Origin: Enterobacter phage vB_Ent31
DNA: 64,000 nt
Sequence record: OR567511.1
Direction: 5' to 3' (one strand)
Every line of letters begins with the position of its first letter. Positions within the stretch are counted from its first letter, which is position 1. Of the stretch, positions 5,255-13,596 are shown piece after piece. The notes beneath the pieces were generated by a model, which saw nothing but the letters and a program-made list of their open reading frames with translations, did not search any database and was not told the origin of the DNA. Both the position numbers and the translations under genes were made by a program.

Positions 5255-5515
5255 TTATTTCATTCTGTTGAAATATTTTTCAGCTGCTTCGTCGTCTTTA
5301 TGGTAGGTCTTAGTCAAAGCTACCGGGCGAACGTTGAAAGTGTTAAGAGAATCGCGAGCAATCACGATAGTAAACCAACGGCCGTCATCATTACCTAAAG
5401 CAGCATAACGATAAGTGTCCCACACAAATTGCTTAATGCTTTTGATATCATTCAATGAATTAGCTAAATCTGAATGACCGTTCTTAGCAAGTTTTTCTAT
5501 GATGTTGTTGAACAT
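5255..5515 (-). CDS. hypothetical protein (86 aa)
   Basis: ORF only. Confidence 0.4.
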   Translation of the reverse strand: MFNNIIEKLAKNGHSDLANSLNDIKSIKQFVWDTYRYAALGNDDGRWFTIVIARDSLNTFNVRPVALTKTYHKDDEAAEKYFNRMK

Positions 5516-5666
5516 TTTCTTTACTCCATTTGTTTTTGATAGAGCTATAATAACACATCTAGAACCAATGTAAACGGCTGAGGCGAAAGATTTTAAAGAA
5601 GATATTTGGATTCACCAGAACGGTTGAGAGGAACTTTCTAGAAGAGAATGATTAAACCATTGACTA

Positions 5667-5703
5667 TGCATACAAAAATGCCCTGAGTGTCATAGAGATA
5701 CCC
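5667..5703 (-). terminator. rho-independent terminator at the distal end of the tRNA cluster
   Basis: Minus strand has a 9-bp stem AATGCCCTG/CAGGGCATT followed by TTTTTGT. Confidence 0.5.
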
Positions 5704-5737
5704 AGGGCATTAAAATTGTTGTATTTATATGCAACAA

Positions 5738-5759
5738 CGCCCCGTCCGAAGACAGGGCG
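5738..5759 (-). terminator. UUCG-tetraloop hairpin / terminator
   Basis: Minus strand reads CGCCCTGTC-TTCG-GACGGGGCG followed by TTGTTGC. It sits in tandem with the 5667-5703 terminator. Confidence 0.45.
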
Positions 5760-5962
5760 TAAGAATCGACAGCACCACCCACTGGCAGATGGTCTGCAGA
5801 TGTTCATTCCCAGCGACTCGGAGGCATCAGTCTCGCCACTGGAAATATAGCGCCGTGGAGGTTATGCTTGCGACAGGGAACAACCGACTAGCGGCAATGG
5901 AAAACCATTCTCTTCTAACACGACGTCTCAACGAGGGCATACGCAAGTTTCCCTTCGAATTT

Positions 5963-6037
5963 GGTGCCGATTGCAGGAGTCGAACCCGCGGCATCTTCAT
6001 TACAAGTGAAGCGCTCTACCAGCTGAGCTAAATCGGC
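5963..6037 (-). tRNA. tRNA-Thr (anticodon UGU)
   Basis: Reverse complement GCCGATT..CTTCA-CTTGTAA-TGAAG..GCGGG-TTCGACT-CCTGC-AATCGGC folds as a cloverleaf with a 7-nt loop. T4 also encodes tRNA-Thr. Confidence 0.75.
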
Positions 6038-6039
6038 TT

Positions 6040-6135
6040 AAGACGGAAATAAGGATTCGAACCTTATGTAGTTGCACAGACGTATCTGCCGTTGAATTCC
6101 TCACTAAGTTTAAGCAACTATTCCCGGGGTCTTAA
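6040..6135 (-). ncRNA. tRNA-like element; the acceptor stem cannot be resolved
   Basis: Has a perfect T-arm (ATAAGG-TTCGAAT-CCTTAT), but no 5' strand complementary to the 3' end was found. Possibly a class II tRNA or a stable RNA like T4 species 1/2 (rnaC/rnaD). Confidence 0.3.
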
Positions 6136-6140
6136 TTTGG

Positions 6141-6222
6141 TGCATCAAGAGGGATTCGAACCCTCAATCCTTTCGGCGGAAGATTTTAAGTCTTCTGTGT
6201 ATACCAGTTCCACCATTGATGC
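6141..6222 (-). tRNA. tRNA-Leu (anticodon UAA), class II with a long variable arm
   Basis: Acceptor GCATCAA/TTGATGC with TGG (CCA) encoded. Anticodon arm GAAGA-CTTAAAA-TCTTC. T-arm GAGGG-TTCGAAT-CCCTC. T4 also has Leu(UAA). Confidence 0.6.
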
Positions 6223-6231
6223 GAAATTTGG

Positions 6232-6313
6232 AGCTAGGAGTGAGATTCGAACTCACGAAGGGATACCCGGCGGATTTGCAATCCGCTGCCTTTGGCCACT
6301 CAGCAACCCTAGC
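6232..6313 (-). tRNA. class II-type tRNA with anticodon GCA (formally Cys); atypical
   Basis: Acceptor GCTAGGG/TCCTAGC. Perfect anticodon arm GCGGA-TTGCAAA-TCCGC. 13-nt variable region. T-arm GTGAG-TTCGAAT-CTCAC. Confidence 0.45.
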
Positions 6314-6320
6314 AAATTGG

Positions 6321-6395
6321 TCGAGGTAGAGGGATTCGAACCCGTCGACCTGTGGATTAGAAGTCCACTGCTCTATCCAGCTGAGCTATACCCCG
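6321..6395 (-). tRNA. tRNA-Arg (anticodon UCU)
   Basis: Acceptor CGGGGTA/TACCTCG with CCA encoded (6318-6320). Anticodon arm GTGGA-CTTCTAA-TCCAC. T-loop TTCGAAT. Confidence 0.7.
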
Positions 6396-6396
6396 A

Positions 6397-6523
6397 GTGT
6401 GTTCAGACAGGACTCGAACCTGTAAGCATGTTCTTGCGGCGTTTTACCACCATCGTCAGCGTATGATTCAATACGCGAACTCAAAAGGTGTTGGACCCCT
6501 TGTCTACCAATTTCAGCACTGAA
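6397..6523 (-). ncRNA. ~127-nt tRNA-like stable RNA candidate
   Basis: The 3' part has a T-arm (ACAGG-TTCGAGT-CCTGT) and acceptor strand CTGAACA. Its complement TGTTCAG lies about 120 nt upstream, which is too long for a tRNA. The size matches T4 species 1/2 RNAs (rnaC/rnaD). Confidence 0.3.
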
Positions 6524-6535
6524 CAACTTTATTTA

Positions 6536-6763
6536 TTACATATCAACTTGTGTAAACCAGTTGATTTTGAAATACTCATCAAAATGAAGAGCAGGCTCAA
6601 CTTGAGTATCCTCCTCAAGAAGAATTAAATTCTTTCTTACAAGAGGGTCAAGATGAGTTGTGTTTAAGCAACTATCATGCCAATATGTAAGTACTCTATT
6701 AGATTCGGCGGTATCAACAAGATAACGAACATTCATATCAGGATGTCGGTACAGATTAATCAT
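6536..6763 (-). CDS. hypothetical protein (75 aa)
   Basis: ORF only. Confidence 0.35.
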   Translation of the reverse strand: MINLYRHPDMNVRYLVDTAESNRVLTYWHDSCLNTTHLDPLVRKNLILLEEDTQVEPALHFDEYFKINWFTQVDM

Positions 6764-6766
6764 AAT

Positions 6767-7216
6767 CTATTTCTCTTGAAGCATTTTGCGTAAACGATAG
6801 AGCTGATTACAAAATTCTTTTTCAGTCAAAACTGTTTCGGAGATTTTGTTCTTGCCCATACTGTGAGTTAATGTTGCGTTACGAGTGGCAATTAATGCTT
6901 TTTGGAATCCAGTGTTTTGAGAAAGTGCATCATATGCTCCAGTTAAAAGATTCTGGTATGCTTCAGATGCTCGATGAATAGGAACACCCTTCCAATAAAG
7001 GGTTTGAGTAGGCCACCAACGTTTCTTCTTGCCTTTGAACTTTGCTGCCTTTCCAACTAAAGTGCAAACATGAGCTTGCATTTCAGGGTTAGAAAATTTG
7101 AGGGATTGTAAGAATCCCTCCATTGATGCACATTCTACATCATCGTAAACGAAAGCATGTGGTGCAAAGTTACTTAAAGCACAAGAAGGATATGAACTTC
7201 CAGAGCCAATGTCCAT
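6767..7216 (-). CDS. NADAR / YbiA-like (DUF1768) domain protein
   Basis: The N-terminal motif ALSNFAPHAFVYDDVECASMEGFLQSLKF matches the NADAR hallmark (SNF...F.YDGV.Y.S.EH.FQA.KF). Size is 149 aa. Confidence 0.5.
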   Translation of the reverse strand: MDIGSGSSYPSCALSNFAPHAFVYDDVECASMEGFLQSLKFSNPEMQAHVCTLVGKAAKFKGKKKRWWPTQTLYWKGVPIHRASEAYQNLLTGAYDALSQNTGFQKALIATRNATLTHSMGKNKISETVLTEKEFCNQLYRLRKMLQEK

Positions 7217-7447
7217 TTAATTACCGTGAGATATTCTAGAAGGTTTCTTACCAAAATAATATTCATATGAGCCATCTAAACGACCTGCTTTAGTGCGGCA
7301 ATATGAATCCCGTTTCTTATAATGCCGCCATTCATCATTGTATCTTGGACGACGGTCAGCGATTAAAATCTCTAATGGCCAACCAGGCGCAAAGGAACGG
7401 AGCCGTTCGACTTTTCTAATGTATCTTTTCTTTAAGATTTTCTTCAT
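7217..7447 (-). CDS. small basic hypothetical protein (76 aa)
   Basis: ORF only. Lys/Arg-rich. Confidence 0.35.
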   Translation of the reverse strand: MKKILKKRYIRKVERLRSFAPGWPLEILIADRRPRYNDEWRHYKKRDSYCRTKAGRLDGSYEYYFGKKPSRISHGN

Positions 7448-7665
7448 ATAGATTCCGACATTACGTGAGTAGTTCTCTTTCTGATTGTAAATTGAGTTAA
7501 TTCATCAACTTCACCACAACGCCAAGCGTCATCTTCAGTTTCAAAACCAAGAGCCTCAAATAGGTTACCTAAACGCCAACCTTCGTCAAACTCGGGGTCT
7601 CCTGAAAAATAGTAATAGTAATCGGCAGTTACTAAATCTTGAATTACAAAATCAAACTTTTCCAT
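7444..7665 (-). CDS. hypothetical acidic protein (73 aa)
   Basis: ORF with ATGA coupling. Confidence 0.35.
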   Translation of the reverse strand: MEKFDFVIQDLVTADYYYYFSGDPEFDEGWRLGNLFEALGFETEDDAWRCGEVDELTQFTIRKRTTHVMSESI

Positions 7666-8162
7666 CAGATACTTACCACAGTAATAGCTTCAGGAGCTTT
7701 AGGAATAACGATATCTTCTTCGATGTAGAAGAGCTTAAATTTTTCAGCTACACGCATGAAGTCAGTATCATAACCAACTGGAGTTCCAATCAATTCTTGG
7801 ATTTTATCCATCACTTTATACTGAACTTGATAGAAATCTTCAAGACGAGCATCGAATTCATCTTCAGTATAATTGCCTTCTGGGATTACAAAGCCAAGCA
7901 CTTCTGAACAGAACTCTGGAGTGATTTCTTCATTTTCAACACAATATTCAAAGAAAGCATCACCGGAATAATCTTCGTTACCCATTCCATTAGGGTCTGA
8001 ATTATCAGACGCGAAACATTTCGCAACGGCACACCAACCTGAAATGTGTCTAGCATTTACATTATAAATCACATTCTCTTGATAATCATCGCCGTCGTTT
8101 TCCCATGATACACATGATACTGCATAGCCTTTAGGGATAGTTTGACCAAAGCGGAGTTCCAT
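7665..8162 (-). CDS. hypothetical acidic protein (165 aa)
   Basis: ORF only. Confidence 0.45.
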   Translation of the reverse strand: MELRFGQTIPKGYAVSCVSWENDGDDYQENVIYNVNARHISGWCAVAKCFASDNSDPNGMGNEDYSGDAFFEYCVENEEITPEFCSEVLGFVIPEGNYTEDEFDARLEDFYQVQYKVMDKIQELIGTPVGYDTDFMRVAEKFKLFYIEEDIVIPKAPEAITVVSI

Positions 8163-8172
8163 AATATTTCCT

Positions 8173-8577
8173 TCAATTAAATGGTGGAAGTGGTTTCATG
8201 TACAAATCTATCAACATACGCCATTTAGCAATTACTTCAGCATACGTATCATTGCATAAAAATCGTGTGATGTCAGAATAATCAATTGCTGGTAGCGGAG
8301 TTAAATGATTCATCAATTCGCGAGGAAATTGATTAAAGCATTTCATCATATCTTTGTAAACATAATCAAGTAAGTCTTGAACAGAGAAGAACTCAGTGTT
8401 TCGTCCTTCTTTGGAATACCGATATTTCAGAAATTTCCAATGGCCGGAGTCTCTGTCTTGAGTGAATGCGTAGTCACTATGTAACATGACATTACGAACT
8501 AAATCTTCAGAGAAGAAGATGGAGTGAGTGCAACCATAATAAATCATAATATTTTCCTCAGAATTTGGTGGCCCCAT
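8173..8577 (-). CDS. hypothetical protein (134 aa)
   Basis: ORF only. Confidence 0.45.
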   Translation of the reverse strand: MGPPNSEENIMIYYGCTHSIFFSEDLVRNVMLHSDYAFTQDRDSGHWKFLKYRYSKEGRNTEFFSVQDLLDYVYKDMMKCFNQFPRELMNHLTPLPAIDYSDITRFLCNDTYAEVIAKWRMLIDLYMKPLPPFN

Positions 8578-8641
8578 CCGGATTCGAACCGAAAACCTAC
8601 CAGTTATGAGCCGGGTGCTCTACCAATTGAGCTATAGGGCC
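8569..8641 (-). tRNA. tRNA with anticodon CAU (Met, or Ile2 if lysidine-modified as in T4 tRNA-Ile)
   Basis: Acceptor GGCCCTA/TGGGGCC with CCA encoded. D-arm GCTC-AATTGGTA-GAGC. Anticodon loop CTCATAA. T-loop TTCGAAT. Isolated between protein genes. Confidence 0.6.
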
Positions 8642-8665
8642 AAAGTCCTCCGAAGAGGACGAATG

Positions 8666-8890
8666 TTATTCAACCATGAAATCTGCTACTTCATCAAAGT
8701 CGTTATCAATAACAACAGTAAATGGCAGAGCTTCATCGCTTGTTTTGATAGTCAGCTTAACGAAGCCATCGACAGTTTCAACCAAACCTACAATTTTATC
8801 AGAACGTACTACAGCACGAGCTACGTCAACAATTTTACCAGTCAGTGCAAATGTAGCGATTTGGTTAACTTCAACAACGATACGTTTCAT
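8666..8890 (-). CDS. hypothetical protein (74 aa)
   Basis: ORF only. Confidence 0.35.
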   Translation of the reverse strand: MKRIVVEVNQIATFALTGKIVDVARAVVRSDKIVGLVETVDGFVKLTIKTSDEALPFTVVIDNDFDEVADFMVE

Positions 8891-8931
8891 TCTTTTTCCT
8901 TAGTGGTTTTGATGTAGTAATAATAACATCA

Positions 8932-9489
8932 TTATTTTAAAGCGTAATATCTGAACGGATTGATATGAAATGATAACATTGCTCTGTCATTCTTTTCAGG
9001 CTTATCAACTTCAGATTTCAGTTTCCACCCACAGTAAACTCGTAAGCAGAATTGAATTTTTCCAATTTTAAGCCAAGGCTGATATCCAAATACACCCCAA
9101 GCTGATTCATTCCACATAAGCAACCAACCGTTAGATTTACCGTTAGATTCTACAGTCGGATTGCCCTTCCATTTAAACTCTGAAGTAGCTTCTCGTCCAA
9201 GAACATAATAAGCAAAGTTATATGCTTTATTTCGCCATAGCCATGCTACGCGTTGCATATATTTTCCAACGATCGGAATTTTACGAATCTTTTCCCAGCG
9301 CTTAACATGACCGCCATCTCCGTCAATTGGATTATCAAATGTCATCATCCAATTGAATCCATATGGAAGTTTTCCGCTAACTTCATTATAGAATGGAACT
9401 ACAAATGGAGCAAGCAAAATAGCTAGCACGCCAGTAATCCAATCAAGTGGTACAAGAACAATATAACTTAAGTATTTTAGCAGTTTCAT
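8932..9489 (-). CDS. membrane protein (N-terminal TM helix); start set to MKLLKYLSY
   Basis: The longer track ORF would overlap tRNA-Phe. The internal ATG at 9489 is preceded by AAGGAG. Confidence 0.5.
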   Translation of the reverse strand: MKLLKYLSYIVLVPLDWITGVLAILLAPFVVPFYNEVSGKLPYGFNWMMTFDNPIDGDGGHVKRWEKIRKIPIVGKYMQRVAWLWRNKAYNFAYYVLGREATSEFKWKGNPTVESNGKSNGWLLMWNESAWGVFGYQPWLKIGKIQFCLRVYCGWKLKSEVDKPEKNDRAMLSFHINPFRYYALK

Positions 9490-9559
9490 AGTAGTCTCCT
9501 TTGACACTCTATTTATGCTAAAAAGCCCGAACAGATTTCTCTGCTCGGGCGTTGTTTGG

Positions 9560-9631
9560 TGGGAAGTGTTGGAATCGAACCAACCTCTCATGCTCTTCAG
9601 GCACGCGCTAATCCATCTCAGCTAACTTCCC
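9560..9631 (-). tRNA. tRNA-Phe (anticodon GAA)
   Basis: Acceptor GGGAAGT/ACTTCCC with CCA encoded. Anticodon arm CGTGC-CTGAAGA-GCATG. T-arm GTTGG-TTCGATT-CCAAC. Confidence 0.75.
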
Positions 9632-9635
9632 TTGG

Positions 9636-9709
9636 TCTCCATACGAGGATTTGAACCTCGGACCCTCTGGTCCCAAACCAGATGCTCTACCAGACTGAGC
9701 TACACGGAG
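9636..9709 (-). tRNA. tRNA-Pro (anticodon UGG)
   Basis: D-arm GCTC-AGTCTGGTA-GAGC. Anticodon arm TCTGG-TTTGGGA-CCAGA. T-arm CGAGG-TTCAAAT-CCTCG. CCA encoded. Confidence 0.7.
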
Positions 9710-9806
9710 ATATTTTTCAGGATGGACGCCACTCTACATTTATGGGTCGAGTCTCCATCATAAAACGTCACGGTCCTCGGCGATTTTCCGTGGTCTGAAA
9801 ATTTGG

Positions 9807-9878
9807 AGCATCCAGAGAGAATCGAACTCTCATCTACTGGGTGGAAGCCAGTCATAATAGCCGCTATACGATGGATGC
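9807..9878 (-). tRNA. tRNA-Gly (anticodon UCC)
   Basis: Acceptor GCATCCA/TGGATGC. Anticodon arm ACTGG-CTTCCAC-CCAGT. T-arm GAGAG-TTCGATT-CTCTC. CCA encoded. Confidence 0.7.
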
Positions 9879-9886
9879 AAATTTGG

Positions 9887-9958
9887 CAGGCCCTGAAGGA
9901 ATCGAACCCTCATCACTGGGTTTGGAGCCCAGCATAATAGCCGTTATACTAAGAACCT
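9887..9958 (-). tRNA. tRNA-Trp (anticodon CCA)
   Basis: Anticodon arm CTGGG-CTCCAAA-CCCAG. T-loop TTCGATT. Acceptor has two G-U pairs. CCA encoded. Confidence 0.65.
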
Positions 9959-9967
9959 GTTATTTGG

Positions 9968-10040
9968 TGGGAGTAACTGGACTCGAACCAGTCACCGCTC
10001 GATTATCGGTCGAGAGCTCTACCAAATGAGATATACTCCC
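9968..10040 (-). tRNA. tRNA-Ile (anticodon GAU), copy 1
   Basis: Acceptor GGGAGTA/TACTCCC. Anticodon arm CTCGA-CCGATAA-TCGAG. T-arm ACTGG-TTCGAGT-CCAGT. CCA encoded. Confidence 0.7.
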
Positions 10041-10109
10041 ATGGAAAGCTAATCATCTAATTGTTGATGTACCACTGCTATGGACAGTGTTTAACTTTCA
10101 TAAATTTGG

Positions 10110-10191
10110 CGGAGAGTAAAGGAGTTGAACCCTCACCGTTTCCGATGGCCCGGATTTCAAGTCCGGTTTGCTACCACTAGCGCTACTCTCC
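10110..10191 (-). tRNA. tRNA-Ser (anticodon UGA), class II
   Basis: Acceptor GGAGAGT/ACTCTCC. Anticodon arm CCGGA-CTTGAAA-TCCGG. 16-nt variable arm. T-loop TTCAACT. CCA encoded. T4 has Ser(UGA). Confidence 0.7.
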
Positions 10192-10197
10192 AGTATT

Positions 10198-10283
10198 TGG
10201 TGAAGGAAGTGTCATATAGACACAATTCGCTTAGCGACAGCCACAGCGTTTTGCGGGCCGTGTATTTTTCCACCATTCCTTCA
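10198..10283 (-). ncRNA. tRNA-like element with a perfect acceptor stem and CCA, but no canonical T-loop
   Basis: Reverse complement is TGAAGGA...GTGTC-TATATGA-GACAC-TTCCTTCA-CCA. The 7-bp acceptor is perfect, CCA is encoded, and it is about 86 nt long. The T-loop is TATATGA instead of TTCRAAT. Confidence 0.3.
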
Positions 10284-10290
10284 TTGTTGG

Positions 10291-10363
10291 GGTGACCGGA
10301 CGGATTTGAACCGTCGACGGCAGCAATCACAATGCTGAGTTCTACCAACTGAACTACGGCCAC
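10291..10363 (-). tRNA. tRNA-His (anticodon GUG)
   Basis: Anticodon arm TCAGC-ATTGTGA-TTGCTG. T-arm GACGG-TTCAAAT-CCGTC. Acceptor GTGGCCG/CGGTCAC. CCA encoded. Confidence 0.65.
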
Positions 10364-10458
10364 ATCAATATTCACTCCATCATGAGGACTTCATACGAAA
10401 TTAAGAGAAGAATGATTAGTTCAACCCCTGTAGACGCGTTGAATGAATATTAATTTGG

Positions 10459-10530
10459 CTGGACTATCTGGATTCGAACCAGAGATACCGGAGTCAAAGG
10501 CCGGTGACTTAACCGCTTGTCTATAGTCCA
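10459..10530 (-). tRNA. tRNA-Gln (anticodon UUG)
   Basis: Acceptor TGGACTA/TAGTCCA. Anticodon arm CCGGC-CTTTGAC-TCCGG. T-arm TCTGG-TTCGAAT-CCAGA. CCA encoded. Confidence 0.6.
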
Positions 10531-10539
10531 ATTGTTTGG

Positions 10540-10613
10540 AGGCGGGTGATGGACTCGAACCATCGCGTAACGGGATATGAACCCGTCATTCTACCAACTG
10601 AAGTTAACCCGCA
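10540..10613 (-). tRNA. tRNA-Met (anticodon CAU) with initiator-like features
   Basis: Anticodon arm ACGGG-TTCATAT-CCCGT has three G-C pairs next to the loop. Positions 1-72 are mismatched (T opposite C). T-arm GATGG-TTCGAGT-CCATC. CCA encoded. Confidence 0.6.
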
Positions 10614-10773
10614 TTTATCCGGGTTCTTGAAGTACTAACAAGTAGCTTGATGTAGAACACGCTAAAGATATAATCTTCCGAATATAGAGCTTATCCCGTG
10701 GGAACAAACAGCTTCGTCCTCGGCATTATCTTATAGGACTCAAACTCATCTTCAAGAACTGCCTCATATTTGG

Positions 10774-10847
10774 CAGTGCTGACGGGTTTCGAACCCGCGA
10801 TCTCTCCCGTGACAGGGGAGTGTCTTGACCATCTCGACTACAGCACT
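10774..10847 (-). tRNA. tRNA-Asp (anticodon GUC)
   Basis: Acceptor AGTGCTG/CAGCACT. Anticodon arm CTCCC-CTGTCAC-GGGAG. T-arm GCGGG-TTCGAAA-CCCGT. CCA encoded. Confidence 0.75.
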
Positions 10848-11096
10848 ATAAATTTACTTTCGTGAGTATGGGATTACCCTCAAGCCTTCCGGAAAGCTGA
10901 ATAGGCGTTATTGGCTCTCATATACCCGTGCACAGATATAATCTTCATTAACACAATAACTTCATCAATATACTCCGAAAGTAAACTTTCGGCGCCGTAT
11001 TTAATTTGAGCTATGTGGTTATCGTTGAGGGAACTCATAGTCAGGGATTAAAGTGCCGACGACTTTGTCAGAACGTCTTCCAACTTCTATATTTGG

Positions 11097-11178
11097 CGGG
11101 TCGTGCAGGTATCGAACCTGCCTAGTCATTTCTGACACGGATTAACAGTCCGCCGCTTACCCTCTCAGCCAACGACCC
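11097..11178 (-). tRNA. class II-type tRNA with anticodon GUU (formally Asn); atypical
   Basis: Acceptor GGGTCGT/ACGACCC. D-stem 3 bp. Anticodon arm GCGGA-CTGTTAA-TCCGT. 15-nt variable arm with stem GTCA/TGAC. T-arm GCAGG-TTCGATA-CCTGC. CCA encoded. Confidence 0.5.
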
Positions 11179-11186
11179 TAAATTTG

Positions 11187-11259
11187 GTTCTCCGTAAGAG
11201 AATTGAACTCTTCTTTCCGACGTGAAAGGTCGGCGTCCTAACCGATAGACGAACGGAGA
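11187..11259 (-). tRNA. tRNA-Glu (anticodon UUC)
   Basis: Acceptor TCTCCGT/ACGGAGA. Anticodon arm CCGAC-CTTTCAC-GTCGG. T-arm AAGAG-TTCAATT-CTCTT. CCA encoded. Confidence 0.75.
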
Positions 11260-11263
11260 TTGG

Positions 11264-11337
11264 TAGGACACGAAAGATTCGAACTTTCGACACCCGGATT
11301 AAAAGTCCGGTGCTCTAACCAGCTGAGCTAGTGTCCT
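11264..11337 (-). tRNA. tRNA-Lys (anticodon UUU)
   Basis: Acceptor AGGACAC/GTGTCCT. Anticodon arm CCGGA-CTTTTAA-TCCGG. T-arm GAAAG-TTCGAAT-CTTTC. CCA encoded. Confidence 0.75.
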
Positions 11338-11378
11338 GTAGATATTTATAATATCAAAAATATCTTTAAGCAAATTGG

Positions 11379-11451
11379 TGGGAATAACTGGACTCGAACC
11401 AGTGACCTAACGATTATCGGTCGTTTGCTCTACCAACTGAGCTATATTCCC
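11379..11451 (-). tRNA. tRNA-Ile (anticodon GAU), copy 2
   Basis: Acceptor GGGAATA/TATTCCC. Anticodon arm AACGA-CCGATAA-TCGTT. T-arm ACTGG-TTCGAGT-CCAGT. CCA encoded. Confidence 0.7.
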
Positions 11452-11460
11452 GGAATTTGG

Positions 11461-11545
11461 TGGGGAGTGATGGAGTCGAACCACCCGAGTCGCAATGACA
11501 ACAGATTTACAGTCTGCACCGCTACCTCTACGGAATTAACTCCCC
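11461..11545 (-). tRNA. tRNA-Tyr (anticodon GUA), class II
   Basis: Acceptor GGGGAGT/ACTCCCC. Anticodon arm GCAGA-CTGTAAA-TCTGT. Long variable arm. T-arm GGTGG-TTCGACT-CCATC. CCA encoded. Confidence 0.75.
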
Positions 11546-11550
11546 GAAAT

Positions 11551-11910
11551 TTATTTAAGAACTGTAGAATTCATGGACTTAACCAAGAAAACTTGATGTG
11601 GCGAACGAAGTGAACCTTCAATATAACGATGTTCTGGAAATCGTGTTGAAGTTTGGAAACCAGCTATACGATAACCTTGTTCAGTCCAACCCAAAAGTAT
11701 ACCAACCATGCATCCAGAAGTTTTTCCGCCTTTATCAAAGGCTACAATATCACCAGGAGCAATTTCATTACCCATTGAATCAGGCTTAATCCATTGTGGA
11801 GTAACCAGTTCTATAGGTATATTTATACCGCTTGAAAATTCGTAGTATTCGTCAGAACGAAGACCTTTGATATCATTAAACAGTTTGTTCCAGGTGTTGC
11901 TGATGCTCAT
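11551..11910 (-). CDS. hypothetical protein (119 aa)
   Basis: ORF ending next to tRNA-Tyr. Confidence 0.4.
   Translation of the reverse strand: MSISNTWNKLFNDIKGLRSDEYYEFSSGINIPIELVTPQWIKPDSMGNEIAPGDIVAFDKGGKTSGCMVGILLGWTEQGYRIAGFQTSTRFPEHRYIEGSLRSPHQVFLVKSMNSTVLK

Positions 11911-12581: not shown

Positions 12582-13592
<1,011 letters not shown>

Positions 13593-13596
<4 letters not shown>

Follow-up and report, generated by a model that had tools for sequence, protein, structure and literature searches.

Phage T4 carries eight tRNA genes; what does a close relative gain from carrying twenty? The question is raised by a tRNA cluster in Enterobacter phage vB_Ent31 (sequence record OR567511.1), of which we analyzed a stretch of 64,000 nucleotides (nt), referred to below as the window. 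A first-pass annotation, made from the letters of the window alone, had folded some 20 minus-strand tRNAs by hand between positions 5667 and 11545, had found so large a set surprising in a phage so near to T4, and had proposed that it reflects either adaptation to the codon usage of the host or translational autonomy. As set out below, the cluster is a genus-typical and already known expansion of the T4 tRNA cluster, ordinary for Karamvirus except for a few odd tRNAs within it. As to its main role as a whole, we lean toward supply, that is, the provision of tRNAs matched to the codons and amino acids that the phage uses.

Gene content and setting of the cluster

The Rfam tRNA model RF00005, run over the whole 64 kb with its gathering score of 29 bits as the threshold, gave 20 matches (32.3–74 bits; E-values from 2.6e-14 to 7e-3 over that length), and ARAGORN, which the first-pass annotation had named as a check, recovered 19 of these 20 genes, each with its anticodon, rather than about eight. 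The hand count of about 20 thus stands. The sole gene overlooked by ARAGORN, at a relaxed threshold as well, is tRNA-Tyr(GUA) at 11458–11545. All 20 are minus-strand genes within 5962–11545 (Table 1), with none in the rest of the window, and all 20 (not just most of them, as had been thought) carry an encoded CCA at the 3' end, followed in nearly all cases by AAU or AAA. The start of the cluster had been placed about 300 nt too far out: the interval 5667–5961 is devoid of tRNAs and contains a conserved structured RNA and terminator-like hairpins. The tool calls agree with the hand-made isotype list for all 20 genes, with the correction that the two CAU tRNAs listed as Met are not elongator Met tRNAs (one is of the Ile2 type and one is initiator-like), and the two class II oddities of that list turn out to be tRNA-Cys(GCA) at 6229–6313 and tRNA-Asn(GUU) at 11094–11178. 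No elongator Met, Ala, or Val tRNA is found among the 20 genes of the window. Global pairwise identity of the phage tRNAs to E. coli and T4 tRNAs (mostly 0.70–0.78) was too unspecific to tell isotype or origin, and these were judged from identity elements and anticodon arms instead. A permissive-E Rfam scan of 5400–11800 brought up an antisense Plastid-ycf2 match and weak YrlA, Ysr49, and snoRNA matches over the tRNAs, which we take as chance or tRNA-likeness.

By megablast against 50,697 phage records, the region 5600–11600 matches Enterobacter phage EnC07 with 99.0% identity over 91% of its length and Enterobacter phage PG7 with 93.8% identity, both classified as Karamvirus (Straboviridae, Tevenvirinae), and the same layout recurs in about 30 more Enterobacter, Cronobacter, Klebsiella, and Erwinia phages. 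Judged by these matches, the phage of the window is itself a Karamvirus, an Enterobacter-infecting relative of T4. GenBank records annotate 20 tRNAs in PG7, 19 in EnC07, 18 in Pet-CM3-4 (where the Tyr gene is additionally labelled "tRNA-Pseudo-GTA"), 19 in COW86c (where Glu is flagged as "possible pseudogene"), and 19 in VPA32 (where a 127-nt tRNA-like element, labelled tRNA-Phe, is counted in). Published counts are 20 for PG7 and 19 each for ECLFM1, fGh-Ecl01, and fGh-Ecl04, and codon usage has already been invoked for Karamvirus tRNA sets (PMC10815064, PMC11226500). Clusters in the same slot of sister genera hold about 19 tRNAs in Escherichia phage EcS1 and 16 in Klebsiella phage Roth67. There is thus no ground for surprise at a set this large so near to T4: 19–20 tRNAs are the norm in Karamvirus and 16–19 in its sister genera, large tRNA arrays in the T4 slot already stand in dozens of GenBank records and in the Karamvirus papers, and the expansion as first stated is nothing new.

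It is highly improbable that many of the 20 are decaying pseudogenes or chance cloverleaves, given that every one scores above the Rfam threshold with acceptor stem and CCA intact, that orthologs are 93–100% identical across dozens of phages, that the genes are retained in three genera, and that compensatory changes are seen, for example, in the acceptor stem of the EcS1 initiator-like tRNA and in T-stems. These points outweigh the low Rfam scores of the Ser (32.3 bits), Tyr (39.1 bits), and initiator-like (44.1 bits) genes, the "Pseudo" and "possible pseudogene" labels of Tyr and Glu in the records just mentioned, the failure of ARAGORN on Tyr, and the presence of tRNA-like remnants in the cluster (6038–6137 and 6399–6525), all of which might be taken as signs of decay. 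The ARAGORN miss and the one "Pseudo" label of tRNA-Tyr are due to an atypical D-arm region, in which 5 nt separate the acceptor stem from a D stem of 3 base pairs (bp), CCG/CGG; the gene is annotated as tRNA-Tyr in PG7, EnC07, and COW86c, and Roth67 and other viral contigs have a D-arm of the same architecture.

In T4, the gene order is 57A, 57B, ipI, trna.4-2, seven tRNAs, segB, tRNA-Arg, rnaD, rnaC, e.8, and the T4 tRNA set consists of exactly the eight that the earlier reading had listed (T4 map). In the window, the product of 12890–13345 is 80% identical in amino acid sequence to T4 57B and matches Pfam Acb1, 13345–13596 encodes gp57A (Pfam GP57), and trna.4, e.8, and e.6 are named in notes to the PG7 record. 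By this synteny, the cluster occupies the T4 tRNA slot in the same orientation, downstream of 57A and 57B/Acb1 and upstream of e.8/e.6-type open reading frames (ORFs). The gene just upstream, acb1 (57B), encodes an anti-CBASS phosphodiesterase, so that a known counter-defence gene neighbors the tRNAs. All eight T4 anticodons are present, as Arg-UCU, Ile-CAU (lysidine), Leu-UAA, Thr-UGU, Pro-UGG, Gly-UCC, Ser-UGA, and Gln-UUG; the twelve extras are Phe, Cys, Trp, Ile-GAU (two copies), His, Asp, Asn, Glu, Lys, Tyr, and the initiator-like tRNA.

The genes all run head to tail on the same strand and form two subclusters. The upstream one (11545–9557) has the order Tyr, Ile, Lys, Glu, Asn, Asp, initiator-like CAU, Gln, His, Ser, Ile, Trp, Gly, Pro, Phe, and the downstream one (6525–5962) consists, in transcription order, of a 127-nt tRNA-like RNA, Arg, Cys, Leu, a 100-nt insert, and Thr. 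As already noticed in the first reading, the two are split by about 3 kb of small ORFs (6536–9489) together with one isolated CAU tRNA, the Ile2-type gene at 8566–8641. The unit is closed by a structured RNA of about 175 nt followed by two terminator-like hairpins (5935–5675). A sigma-70 promoter scan returned 20 sites where 17.9 were expected, too small a difference to be informative, and we claim no promoter.

The cluster is a mosaic produced by recombination, which is common in this region, since its segments match different relatives: the middle segment from Pro to Gln and the Leu–Thr insert are 95–98% identical to Roth67 (Jiaodavirus type), the middle segment bringing with it the second Ile(GAU) gene; the remaining parts match PG7-type Karamvirus; and EnC07 has a class I tRNA-Asn and an ORF where the window has Asn (class II), Glu, and Lys. 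In this class I tRNA-Asn of EnC07 (locus L001, 6757–6832), position 33 is apparently C and not U, with the loop CCGUUAA.

Identity elements tell the two CAU tRNAs apart. The isolated gene has the acceptor stem GGCCCUA/UGGGGCC, which is like those of E. coli ileX (GGCCCCU/AGGGGCC) and T4 tRNA-Ile(CAU) (GGCCCUG) and unlike that of the elongator gene metT (GGCUACG). The stem includes C4-G69 and C5-G68, the determinants for TilS, where the elongator Met tRNA has U4-A69 and A5-U68. The same GGCCCU... family also holds the copies from T4, Roth67, and Citrobacter phage Ursula, the last of which is near-identical and annotated as tRNA-Ile2(CAT). The gene is best read as an Ile2-type tRNA, the ortholog of T4 tRNA-Ile, and, as such an ortholog, would read AUA after lysidine modification.

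The second CAU tRNA (10537–10613) has a U1·C72 mismatch, and 1:72 stays U·C or A·C in Karamvirus, Roth67, and EcS1. Over pairs 2-6:67-71 it does not differ from E. coli metZ, the formylase determinants G2-C71, C3-G70, and G4-C69 included, and its anticodon stem ACGGG/CCCGU (G29–G31:C39–C41) is like that of metZ (UCGGG/CCCGA) and unlike that of metT (CAUCA/UGAUG); in the EcS1 copy, G5-C68 has changed to A5-U68 in a compensated manner. It departs from the E. coli initiator in having C·A at 11:24 (in the ARAGORN register) and not A11-U24, U73 and not A73, and a loop with U32/U38 as against C32/A38 in E. coli fMet. Because A11-U24 and A73 are missing, the term initiator-like is used here, and the gene is not counted as a proven initiator.

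Codon and amino acid supply

For the comparison of codon usage, the phage was represented by 18,608 codons in 70 long ORFs of the window, none overlapping another, and E. coli K-12 by 15,378 codons in 39 long ORFs, taken from a total of about 65 kb. The codons of the T4-type tRNAs are all more frequent in the phage, AGA by 6.8-fold, UCA by 3.7-fold, AUA by 3.4-fold, ACA by 2.8-fold, GGA by 2.6-fold, CCA by 2.5-fold, UUA by 1.9-fold, and CAA by 1.7-fold, and these eight A-ending codons amount to 134–143 per 1000 in the phage (large plus-strand ORFs included) versus 54.5 in E. coli. In 7 of the 10 multi-isoacceptor families, the cognate codon of the phage tRNA is the most enriched one of its family. 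The comparison supports codon compensation for the eight T4-type tRNAs, and the proposed adaptation to the codon usage of the host is borne out to this extent. It does not extend to the twelve extras, for which codon bias cannot select, because 11 of them serve amino acids that are read by a single host isoacceptor (Glu and Lys, for instance, have one anticodon each in E. coli) and the twelfth duplicates the initiator.

Amino acid usage fills part of this gap. Relative to the E. coli sample, the phage over-uses Asn (1.75-fold), Lys (1.42-fold), Ile (1.29-fold), Tyr (1.25-fold), and Phe (1.21-fold); there is a phage tRNA for each of the nine most over-used amino acids and none for Ala (0.76-fold). 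Amino acid usage accounts for just some of the extras, and not for His or Cys. Translational autonomy, the other purpose that had been proposed, is not supported, since tRNAs for Ala, Val, and elongator Met are absent.

We envisage the locus as the T4-type polycistronic tRNA cluster of a Karamvirus, enlarged from eight genes to twenty. As is established for the T4 tRNAs, the genes would be transcribed as polycistronic precursors and processed by the host; because every tRNA has its own CCA and an A/U-rich tail, maturation would presumably rely on RNase P and RNase E-type cleavage by the host and could dispense with CCA addition. The mature tRNAs would top up the host pool for a genome of 39.7% G+C in a host of about 55% G+C (the value for Enterobacter cloacae; PMC10815064). 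In such a scheme, the eight T4-type tRNAs would read the A-ending codons that are commoner in the phage than in the host sample, and the twelve extras would raise or safeguard the supply for the over-used Asn, Lys, Ile, Tyr, and Phe and for host tRNAs that become limiting in infection.

It should be noted that several observations, besides the indifference of the twelve extras to codon bias, weigh against supply as the role of the whole cluster. Phage tRNAs are also provided for amino acids that the phage under-uses, namely His (0.67-fold), Cys (0.78-fold), Gln (0.80-fold), Arg (0.75-fold), and Leu (0.68-fold), and the host proxy is a sample of E. coli K-12, made up in part of highly expressed genes, and not an Enterobacter genome. 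Moreover, several members depart from host identity rules (His without G-1, the initiator-like tRNA with U73, Tyr with its odd D-arm, and the long-armed Asn and Cys tRNAs), and for this reason not all 20 tRNAs may be efficient decoders. The tRNA-His is a case in point: it has T at -1 and so no encoded G-1 opposite C73, contrary to the bacterial His identity rule, and the same combination of T at -1 with C73 is found in every T4-like relative examined (loci L001–L005, L007, and L008); in a set of 68 distinct viral His tRNAs, position -1 is T in 32 and G in 20. Under E. coli rules, a tRNA-His that lacks G-1 is expected to be a poor substrate for histidyl-tRNA synthetase. With these points taken into account, we still judge supply, by codon and by amino acid together, to be the probable main role, though with limited confidence. 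The cluster offers a worked example in the debate on why phages carry tRNAs, with a clean split between a T4-like "rare codon" set that is explained by codon compensation and a twelve-gene add-on that is not so explained.

Counter-defence and the long-armed tRNAs

The tRNAs for which codon bias cannot account are at the same time those that invite a different explanation, in which the expansion beyond the eight genes of T4 would serve mainly in counter-defence, by providing nuclease-resistant or surplus tRNA copies against PARIS AriB, PrrC, the effector of retron Eco7, VapC, or colicin-type tRNases, or against the losses that follow from the shutdown of host RNA synthesis. We take this possibility seriously, though we hold it to be less probable than not as the main driver of the expansion. 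Part of its appeal is the composition of the set, which includes the three AriB targets Lys(UUU), Thr(UGU), and Asn(GUU), as well as Tyr and an initiator-like tRNA with U32/U38 in place of the C32/A38 of fMet, which VapC cuts at positions 38/39. Phages are reported to supply tRNA-Tyr as a means of evading a retron (PMC11555353), changes in the anticodon loop have been argued to give tRNase resistance (eLife, PMC10264068), and the same counter-nuclease logic has been proposed or shown for VapC, PrrC, colicins, and retrons (PMC10264068, PMC11555353). For PARIS, AriB cleaves the E. coli versions of Lys(UUU), Thr(UGU), and Asn(GUU); phages are rescued by the three T5 counterparts, and in the case of T4, whose own set lacks tRNA-Lys, the tRNA-Lys of T5 has this effect (PMC12409363). 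The cluster thus brings together the PARIS-targeted tRNAs with others that are reportedly hit by retron, VapC, and colicin-type defences, and it lies just downstream of the anti-CBASS gene acb1.

The anticodon arms themselves give a divided answer. At positions 36–41, the tRNA-Lys of the window has UAAUCC and that of E. coli has UAAUCA (PMC12409363), and the phage Lys and Thr tRNAs differ from their host counterparts at position 41 or 40, beside the AriB cut site. However, the anticodon loops of Asn, Cys, Tyr, Thr, and Ser are those of the host, so that the signature of loop mutation is absent there, and positions 36–41 of phage Asn tRNAs in a small unbiased sample show no clear pattern. In this sample (26 class I and 5 class II tRNAs), we looked for a change at position 39 by which class I phage Asn tRNAs might evade AriB, with UAAUC kept in class II ones; no clear pattern emerged, and the idea is not used as evidence. 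A role in counter-defence does not, in any case, exclude one in codon or amino acid supply, and the two readings are compatible.

Class II tRNAs in bacteria are normally those for Ser, Leu, and Tyr (and Sec) only, and the anticodons GUU and GCA make the long-armed Asn and Cys tRNAs of the window variants of this class. The variable region of the tRNA-Asn has 15 nt that form a GUCA-GAAA-UGAC stem-loop, its anticodon arm is that of E. coli asnT (17 of 17 positions), and it has G73. The tRNA-Cys has a variable region of 13 nt with a GGG-UAU-CCC stem-loop, an anticodon arm that matches E. coli cysT at 16 of 17 positions, and U73; its D-arm (UUGCUGAGUGGCCAAAGGCAG) and variable region are laid out as in E. 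coli tyrU according to a hand alignment, and global identity does not single out tyrU (0.72, against 0.73 for glnU). As regards the G15:G48 pair, G15 is present, and position 48 is C by our numbering, which is uncertain inside the long arm.

These forms are not confined to the window. The Asn type has BLAST matches in 634 phage records, Jiaodavirus and T5-like phages included; the tRNA-Asn of the T5-like phage Bas33, for example, is annotated, is 86 nt long, and is about 79% identical to that of the window. A scan of IMG/VR for an Asn anticodon arm separated by a long gap from the T-loop downstream returned 107 contigs (loci L016–L122) with 83 distinct long Asn tRNAs, in which the variable region is mostly 13–19 nt long (with outliers of 22 and 24 nt), the loop is usually of the GAAA type, the stems of the arm covary freely, and the discriminator is G73 in 82 of the 83. 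The corresponding Cys scan, whose pattern imposed U73 and CCA, returned 109 contigs (loci L124–L232) with 70 distinct long Cys tRNAs. Stems of at least 3 bp are present in 92% of 75 distinct Asn arms and 85% of 52 distinct Cys arms; in both sets the stems covary, and in both the mean longest arm stem exceeds that of all 200 shuffles. In viral loci that had not been chosen for the type, long forms were found for 5 of 31 Asn, 2 of 33 Cys, 10 of 62 Thr(UGU), and 14 of 22 Ile(UAU) tRNAs. When the Asn pattern was applied to bacteria and archaea, with one genome per species and 185,579 species in all, only 25 stretches were returned, about nine of them inside dense tRNA arrays of 7–36 tRNAs per 8 kb. 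Long-armed Asn and Cys tRNAs are thus widespread in viral contigs, and the Asn pattern is nearly absent from cellular genomes. We found no earlier description of long-armed phage Asn or Cys tRNAs in the literature searched, which scarcely covers older work and is therefore weak evidence.

Cognate discriminators, host-like anticodon arms, the occurrence of a class I tRNA-Asn beside Asp in EnC07, and the precedent of the selC* tRNA-Cys all argue that these tRNAs are real Asn and Cys acceptors. The alternative is that they are substrates of seryl-tRNA synthetase (SerRS), in which case AAY or UGY codons would be deliberately mistranslated as Ser, or the tRNAs would be decoys with no part in decoding, and this we regard as improbable. 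Both asparaginyl- and cysteinyl-tRNA synthetase depend on the anticodon, and the arms that present it are identical or nearly so to those of E. coli asnT and cysT; the discriminators, too, are exactly those of Asn and Cys. The stem statistics given above indicate that the variable arm is under selection, as charging by SerRS would have it, and a long variable arm together with G73 or U73 has been read as the SerRS signature in allo-tRNAs with many anticodons (Mukai et al., PMC5389517); nematode nev-tRNAs, which are class II tRNAs with foreign anticodons, provide a further precedent (PMC3333845). However, U73 with GCA is the stated Cys identity set, and the long-armed selC* tRNA-Cys is cysteinylated (PMC7609411). 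The arm stems are also just 3–4 bp long, as against 5 bp in the tRNA-Ser of the window, and the class I tRNA-Asn that stands in place of Asn-Glu-Lys in EnC07 suggests that the two forms are interchangeable as Asn tRNAs.

Taken as Asn and Cys acceptors, the long-armed tRNAs would represent a virus-associated class that combines a host-like anticodon arm and the cognate discriminator with a selected long arm. The arm may be an adaptation, and since it adjoins the 40/41 site that is cut by PARIS AriB, we suggest, tentatively and with more doubt than conviction, that it could shield the tRNA against host tRNA nucleases; diversion to SerRS is less likely than such a shield. Should the long-armed tRNAs turn out to be nuclease-resistant, they would constitute a new structural escape route from tRNA-targeting immunity; should they turn out to be mischarged, they would constitute a new case of viral recoding, and either outcome would interest the tRNA and phage-defence fields. 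Together with the unannotated RNA at the end of the cluster, they merit attention in their own right.

Associated elements and known counterparts

Table 1. Features of the tRNA cluster, in order of position in the window, with ARAGORN calls and Rfam (RF00005) scores
Feature	Position	Strand	Call or score	Remarks
Terminator-like hairpin, second	~5675–5712	-		AAUGCCCUGGG...CUCAGGGCAUUUUU
Terminator-like hairpin, first	5736–5762	-		ACGCCCUGUCUUCGGACGGGGCGU
Candidate structured non-coding RNA, not a tRNA	5763–5935	-	covariation	just 3' of tRNA-Thr
tRNA-Thr(UGU)	5962–6037	-	ARAGORN; 72.9 bits	last of cluster; 83% identical to T4 tRNA-Thr
100-nt insert	6038–6137	-		T-arm-like hairpin UAAGGUUCGAAUCCUUA; closed by UUAAGAC/GUCUUAA
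tRNA-Leu(UAA)	6138–6222	-	ARAGORN; 59.2 bits	class II
tRNA-Cys(GCA)	6229–6313	-	ARAGORN; 48 bits	class II, long variable arm; U73; CCA
tRNA-Arg(UCU)	6318–6395	-	ARAGORN; 59.7 bits	
127-nt tRNA-like RNA	6399–6525	-		upstream of tRNA-Arg
Block of 8 small accessory ORFs	6536–9489	-		
tRNA(CAU), Ile2 type	8566–8641	-	ARAGORN; 65.1 bits	
Terminator-like hairpin	9525–9550	-	terminator scan	11 bp, then UUUUU; ends upstream subcluster
tRNA-Phe(GAA)	9557–9631	-	ARAGORN; 58.6 bits	
tRNA-Pro(UGG)	9633–9709	-	ARAGORN; 64 bits	86% identical to T4 tRNA-Pro
~95-nt spacer (Gly-Pro)	9710–9803	-		stem-closed; not in PG7
tRNA-Gly(UCC)	9804–9878	-	ARAGORN; 58.8 bits	
tRNA-Trp(CCA)	9884–9958	-	ARAGORN; 56.4 bits	
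tRNA-Ile(GAU), copy a	9965–10040	-	ARAGORN; 55 bits	
66-nt spacer	10041–10106	-		stem-closed
tRNA-Ser(UGA)	10107–10191	-	ARAGORN; 32.3 bits (lowest of 20)	class II; G73
96-nt spacer	10192–10287	-		stem-closed, GAAGGAA/UUCCUUC; 98% identical to Klebsiella phage Roth67
tRNA-His(GUG)	10288–10363	-	ARAGORN; 61.5 bits	C73; T at -1
92-nt spacer	10364–10455	-		14-bp closing stem
tRNA-Gln(UUG)	10456–10530	-	ARAGORN; 57.8 bits	
Initiator-like tRNA(CAU)	10537–10613	-	ARAGORN; 44.1 bits	U73; CCA
157-nt spacer	10614–10770	-		10-bp closing stem GUUCUUGAAG/CUUCAAGAAC
tRNA-Asp(GUC)	10771–10847	-	ARAGORN; 64.7 bits	
247-nt spacer	10848–11093	-		52-amino-acid ORF at 10880–11038, no family match
tRNA-Asn(GUU)	11094–11178	-	ARAGORN; 49.8 bits	class II, long variable arm; G73; CCA
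tRNA-Glu(UUC)	11185–11259	-	ARAGORN; 56.5 bits	
tRNA-Lys(UUU)	11261–11337	-	ARAGORN; 71.2 bits	
tRNA-Ile(GAU), copy b	11376–11451	-	ARAGORN; 74 bits	
tRNA-Tyr(GUA)	11458–11545	-	39.1 bits; missed by ARAGORN	class II; A73; encoded CCA

The candidate RNA that follows tRNA-Thr contains two covarying hairpins, one of them with the invariant loop GAGACUGAUGCCUCCGAG, and two CCUCC motifs. Its core is almost invariant in Karamvirus, Jiaodavirus, EcS1, Citrobacter phage Ursula, Erwinia phage IT22, and Serratia phage PS2, and its stems covary completely, from CCAGUGGC/GUCGCUGG to CCUUUGGAU/GUCCAAAGG to UUAUUAUGU/GCAUAAUAA; compensatory changes are seen in 21 of 60 predicted pairs in an alignment of six sequences and in 14 of 29 in one of nine. 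We counted 188 phage records with this RNA, drawn from at least five genera. In every case it lies within a tRNA cluster or terminates one, and none of the records annotates it as RNA; spurious small coding sequences sometimes cover it. In Rfam, it drew just a sub-threshold match to Ysr49 (23 bits versus a gathering score of 95; E = 0.39), and an nhmmer profile of it, run with filters off against the T4 tRNA region, gave no match. The two hairpins beyond it were read from the sequence and are both absent from the terminator-scan list; the first of them covaries. In relatives, an ORF of 640–830 nt, of unknown function, lies between these hairpins (1613–2266 in the PG7 locus L002, 1114–1767 in L003, 1117–1950 in L004, and 1118–1759 in L005), and both the window (at ~5713–5716) and EnC07 are without it.

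In the 127-nt tRNA-like RNA, an acceptor stem, a D-arm of Leu type, and a T-arm can be recognized, and three or four additional hairpins occupy the site of the anticodon arm; ARAGORN in intron mode reports it as "Phe(aaa) with a 47-nt intron." It is kept in three genera (PG7, COW86c, Roth67, and EcS1), and its T-stem covaries. Most of the inter-tRNA spacers are modules with closing stems of 7–14 bp, some of which are present or absent between close relatives: the 100-nt insert between Leu and Thr is found in EnC07 and Roth67 and not in PG7, the spacer at 10364–10455 has its interior replaced and its closing stem retained in locus L115, and the 247-nt spacer is 95–100% conserved in relatives. 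The ORF block between the subclusters encodes a DUF7338 protein (8932–9489) and a gp30.3-family protein (6767–7216), and its other ORFs belong to PHROG families whose function is not known; Pfam and PHROG searches of these inter-cluster ORFs returned DUF7338, gp30.3, and families of unknown function only, with no tie to tRNA biology.

The nearest counterparts of the cluster are those of other Karamvirus phages (PG7, EnC07, ECLFM1, fGh-Ecl01, and fGh-Ecl04), to which it is similar in nucleotide sequence (94–99% identity), gene order, and ORF block, and with which it has in common the class II Cys, the Ile2-type CAU, and the initiator-like CAU tRNAs; what sets the window apart is that it is a new mosaic. 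PG7 has, in addition, a 95-nt "tRNA-Met" between Gly and Trp (locus L002, 6501–6595), which has no counterpart between 9878 and 9884 in the window. A side-by-side reading suggests homology between this element and the tRNA-like 3' half of T4 rnaC (species 1 RNA), the two having ACGGAACGUUCGGAUAUGGU...GGUUCGAAUCC...GCGUU in common.

Like the window, T4 has its cluster split into two subclusters by inserted ORFs, and in both phages stable RNAs that are not tRNAs, or candidates for such, sit among the tRNAs. The T4 cluster differs in having eight tRNAs together with rnaC and rnaD, where the window has 20 tRNAs and two other RNAs (the 127-nt tRNA-like one and the structured one of about 175 nt), in that four of the T4 tRNA genes lack an encoded CCA, which all 20 genes of the window possess, and in having the homing endonuclease gene segB, of which there is none in the cluster of the window. 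A blastn-short search for rnaC and rnaD homologs in the window yielded T-loop words only, and homology is not claimed.

The tRNA region of T5 resembles that of the window as a large array that includes Lys(UUU), Thr(UGU), and Asn(GUU), and T5-like phages have a tRNA-Asn of the same long-armed type. The phage family and the genomic context are different, and the U39A change reported for the T5 tRNA-Lys (PMC12409363) is not present in the tRNA-Lys of the window.

Finally, allo-tRNAs, the selC* tRNA-Cys, and nev-tRNAs are comparable to the long-armed phage tRNAs in that a long variable arm is combined with anticodons other than those for Ser, Leu, or Tyr (PMC5389517, PMC7609411), and the likeness is closest between the selC* tRNA-Cys and the tRNA-Cys of the window, which have the long arm, GCA, and U73 in common (PMC7609411). 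The phage Asn and Cys tRNAs differ from all three in keeping the 7/5 acceptor/T-stem, an anticodon stem of normal length, and host-like anticodon arms, and, whereas allo-tRNAs, selC* tRNA-Cys, and nev-tRNAs are minor cellular species, the long-armed phage tRNAs sit in viral tRNA arrays.

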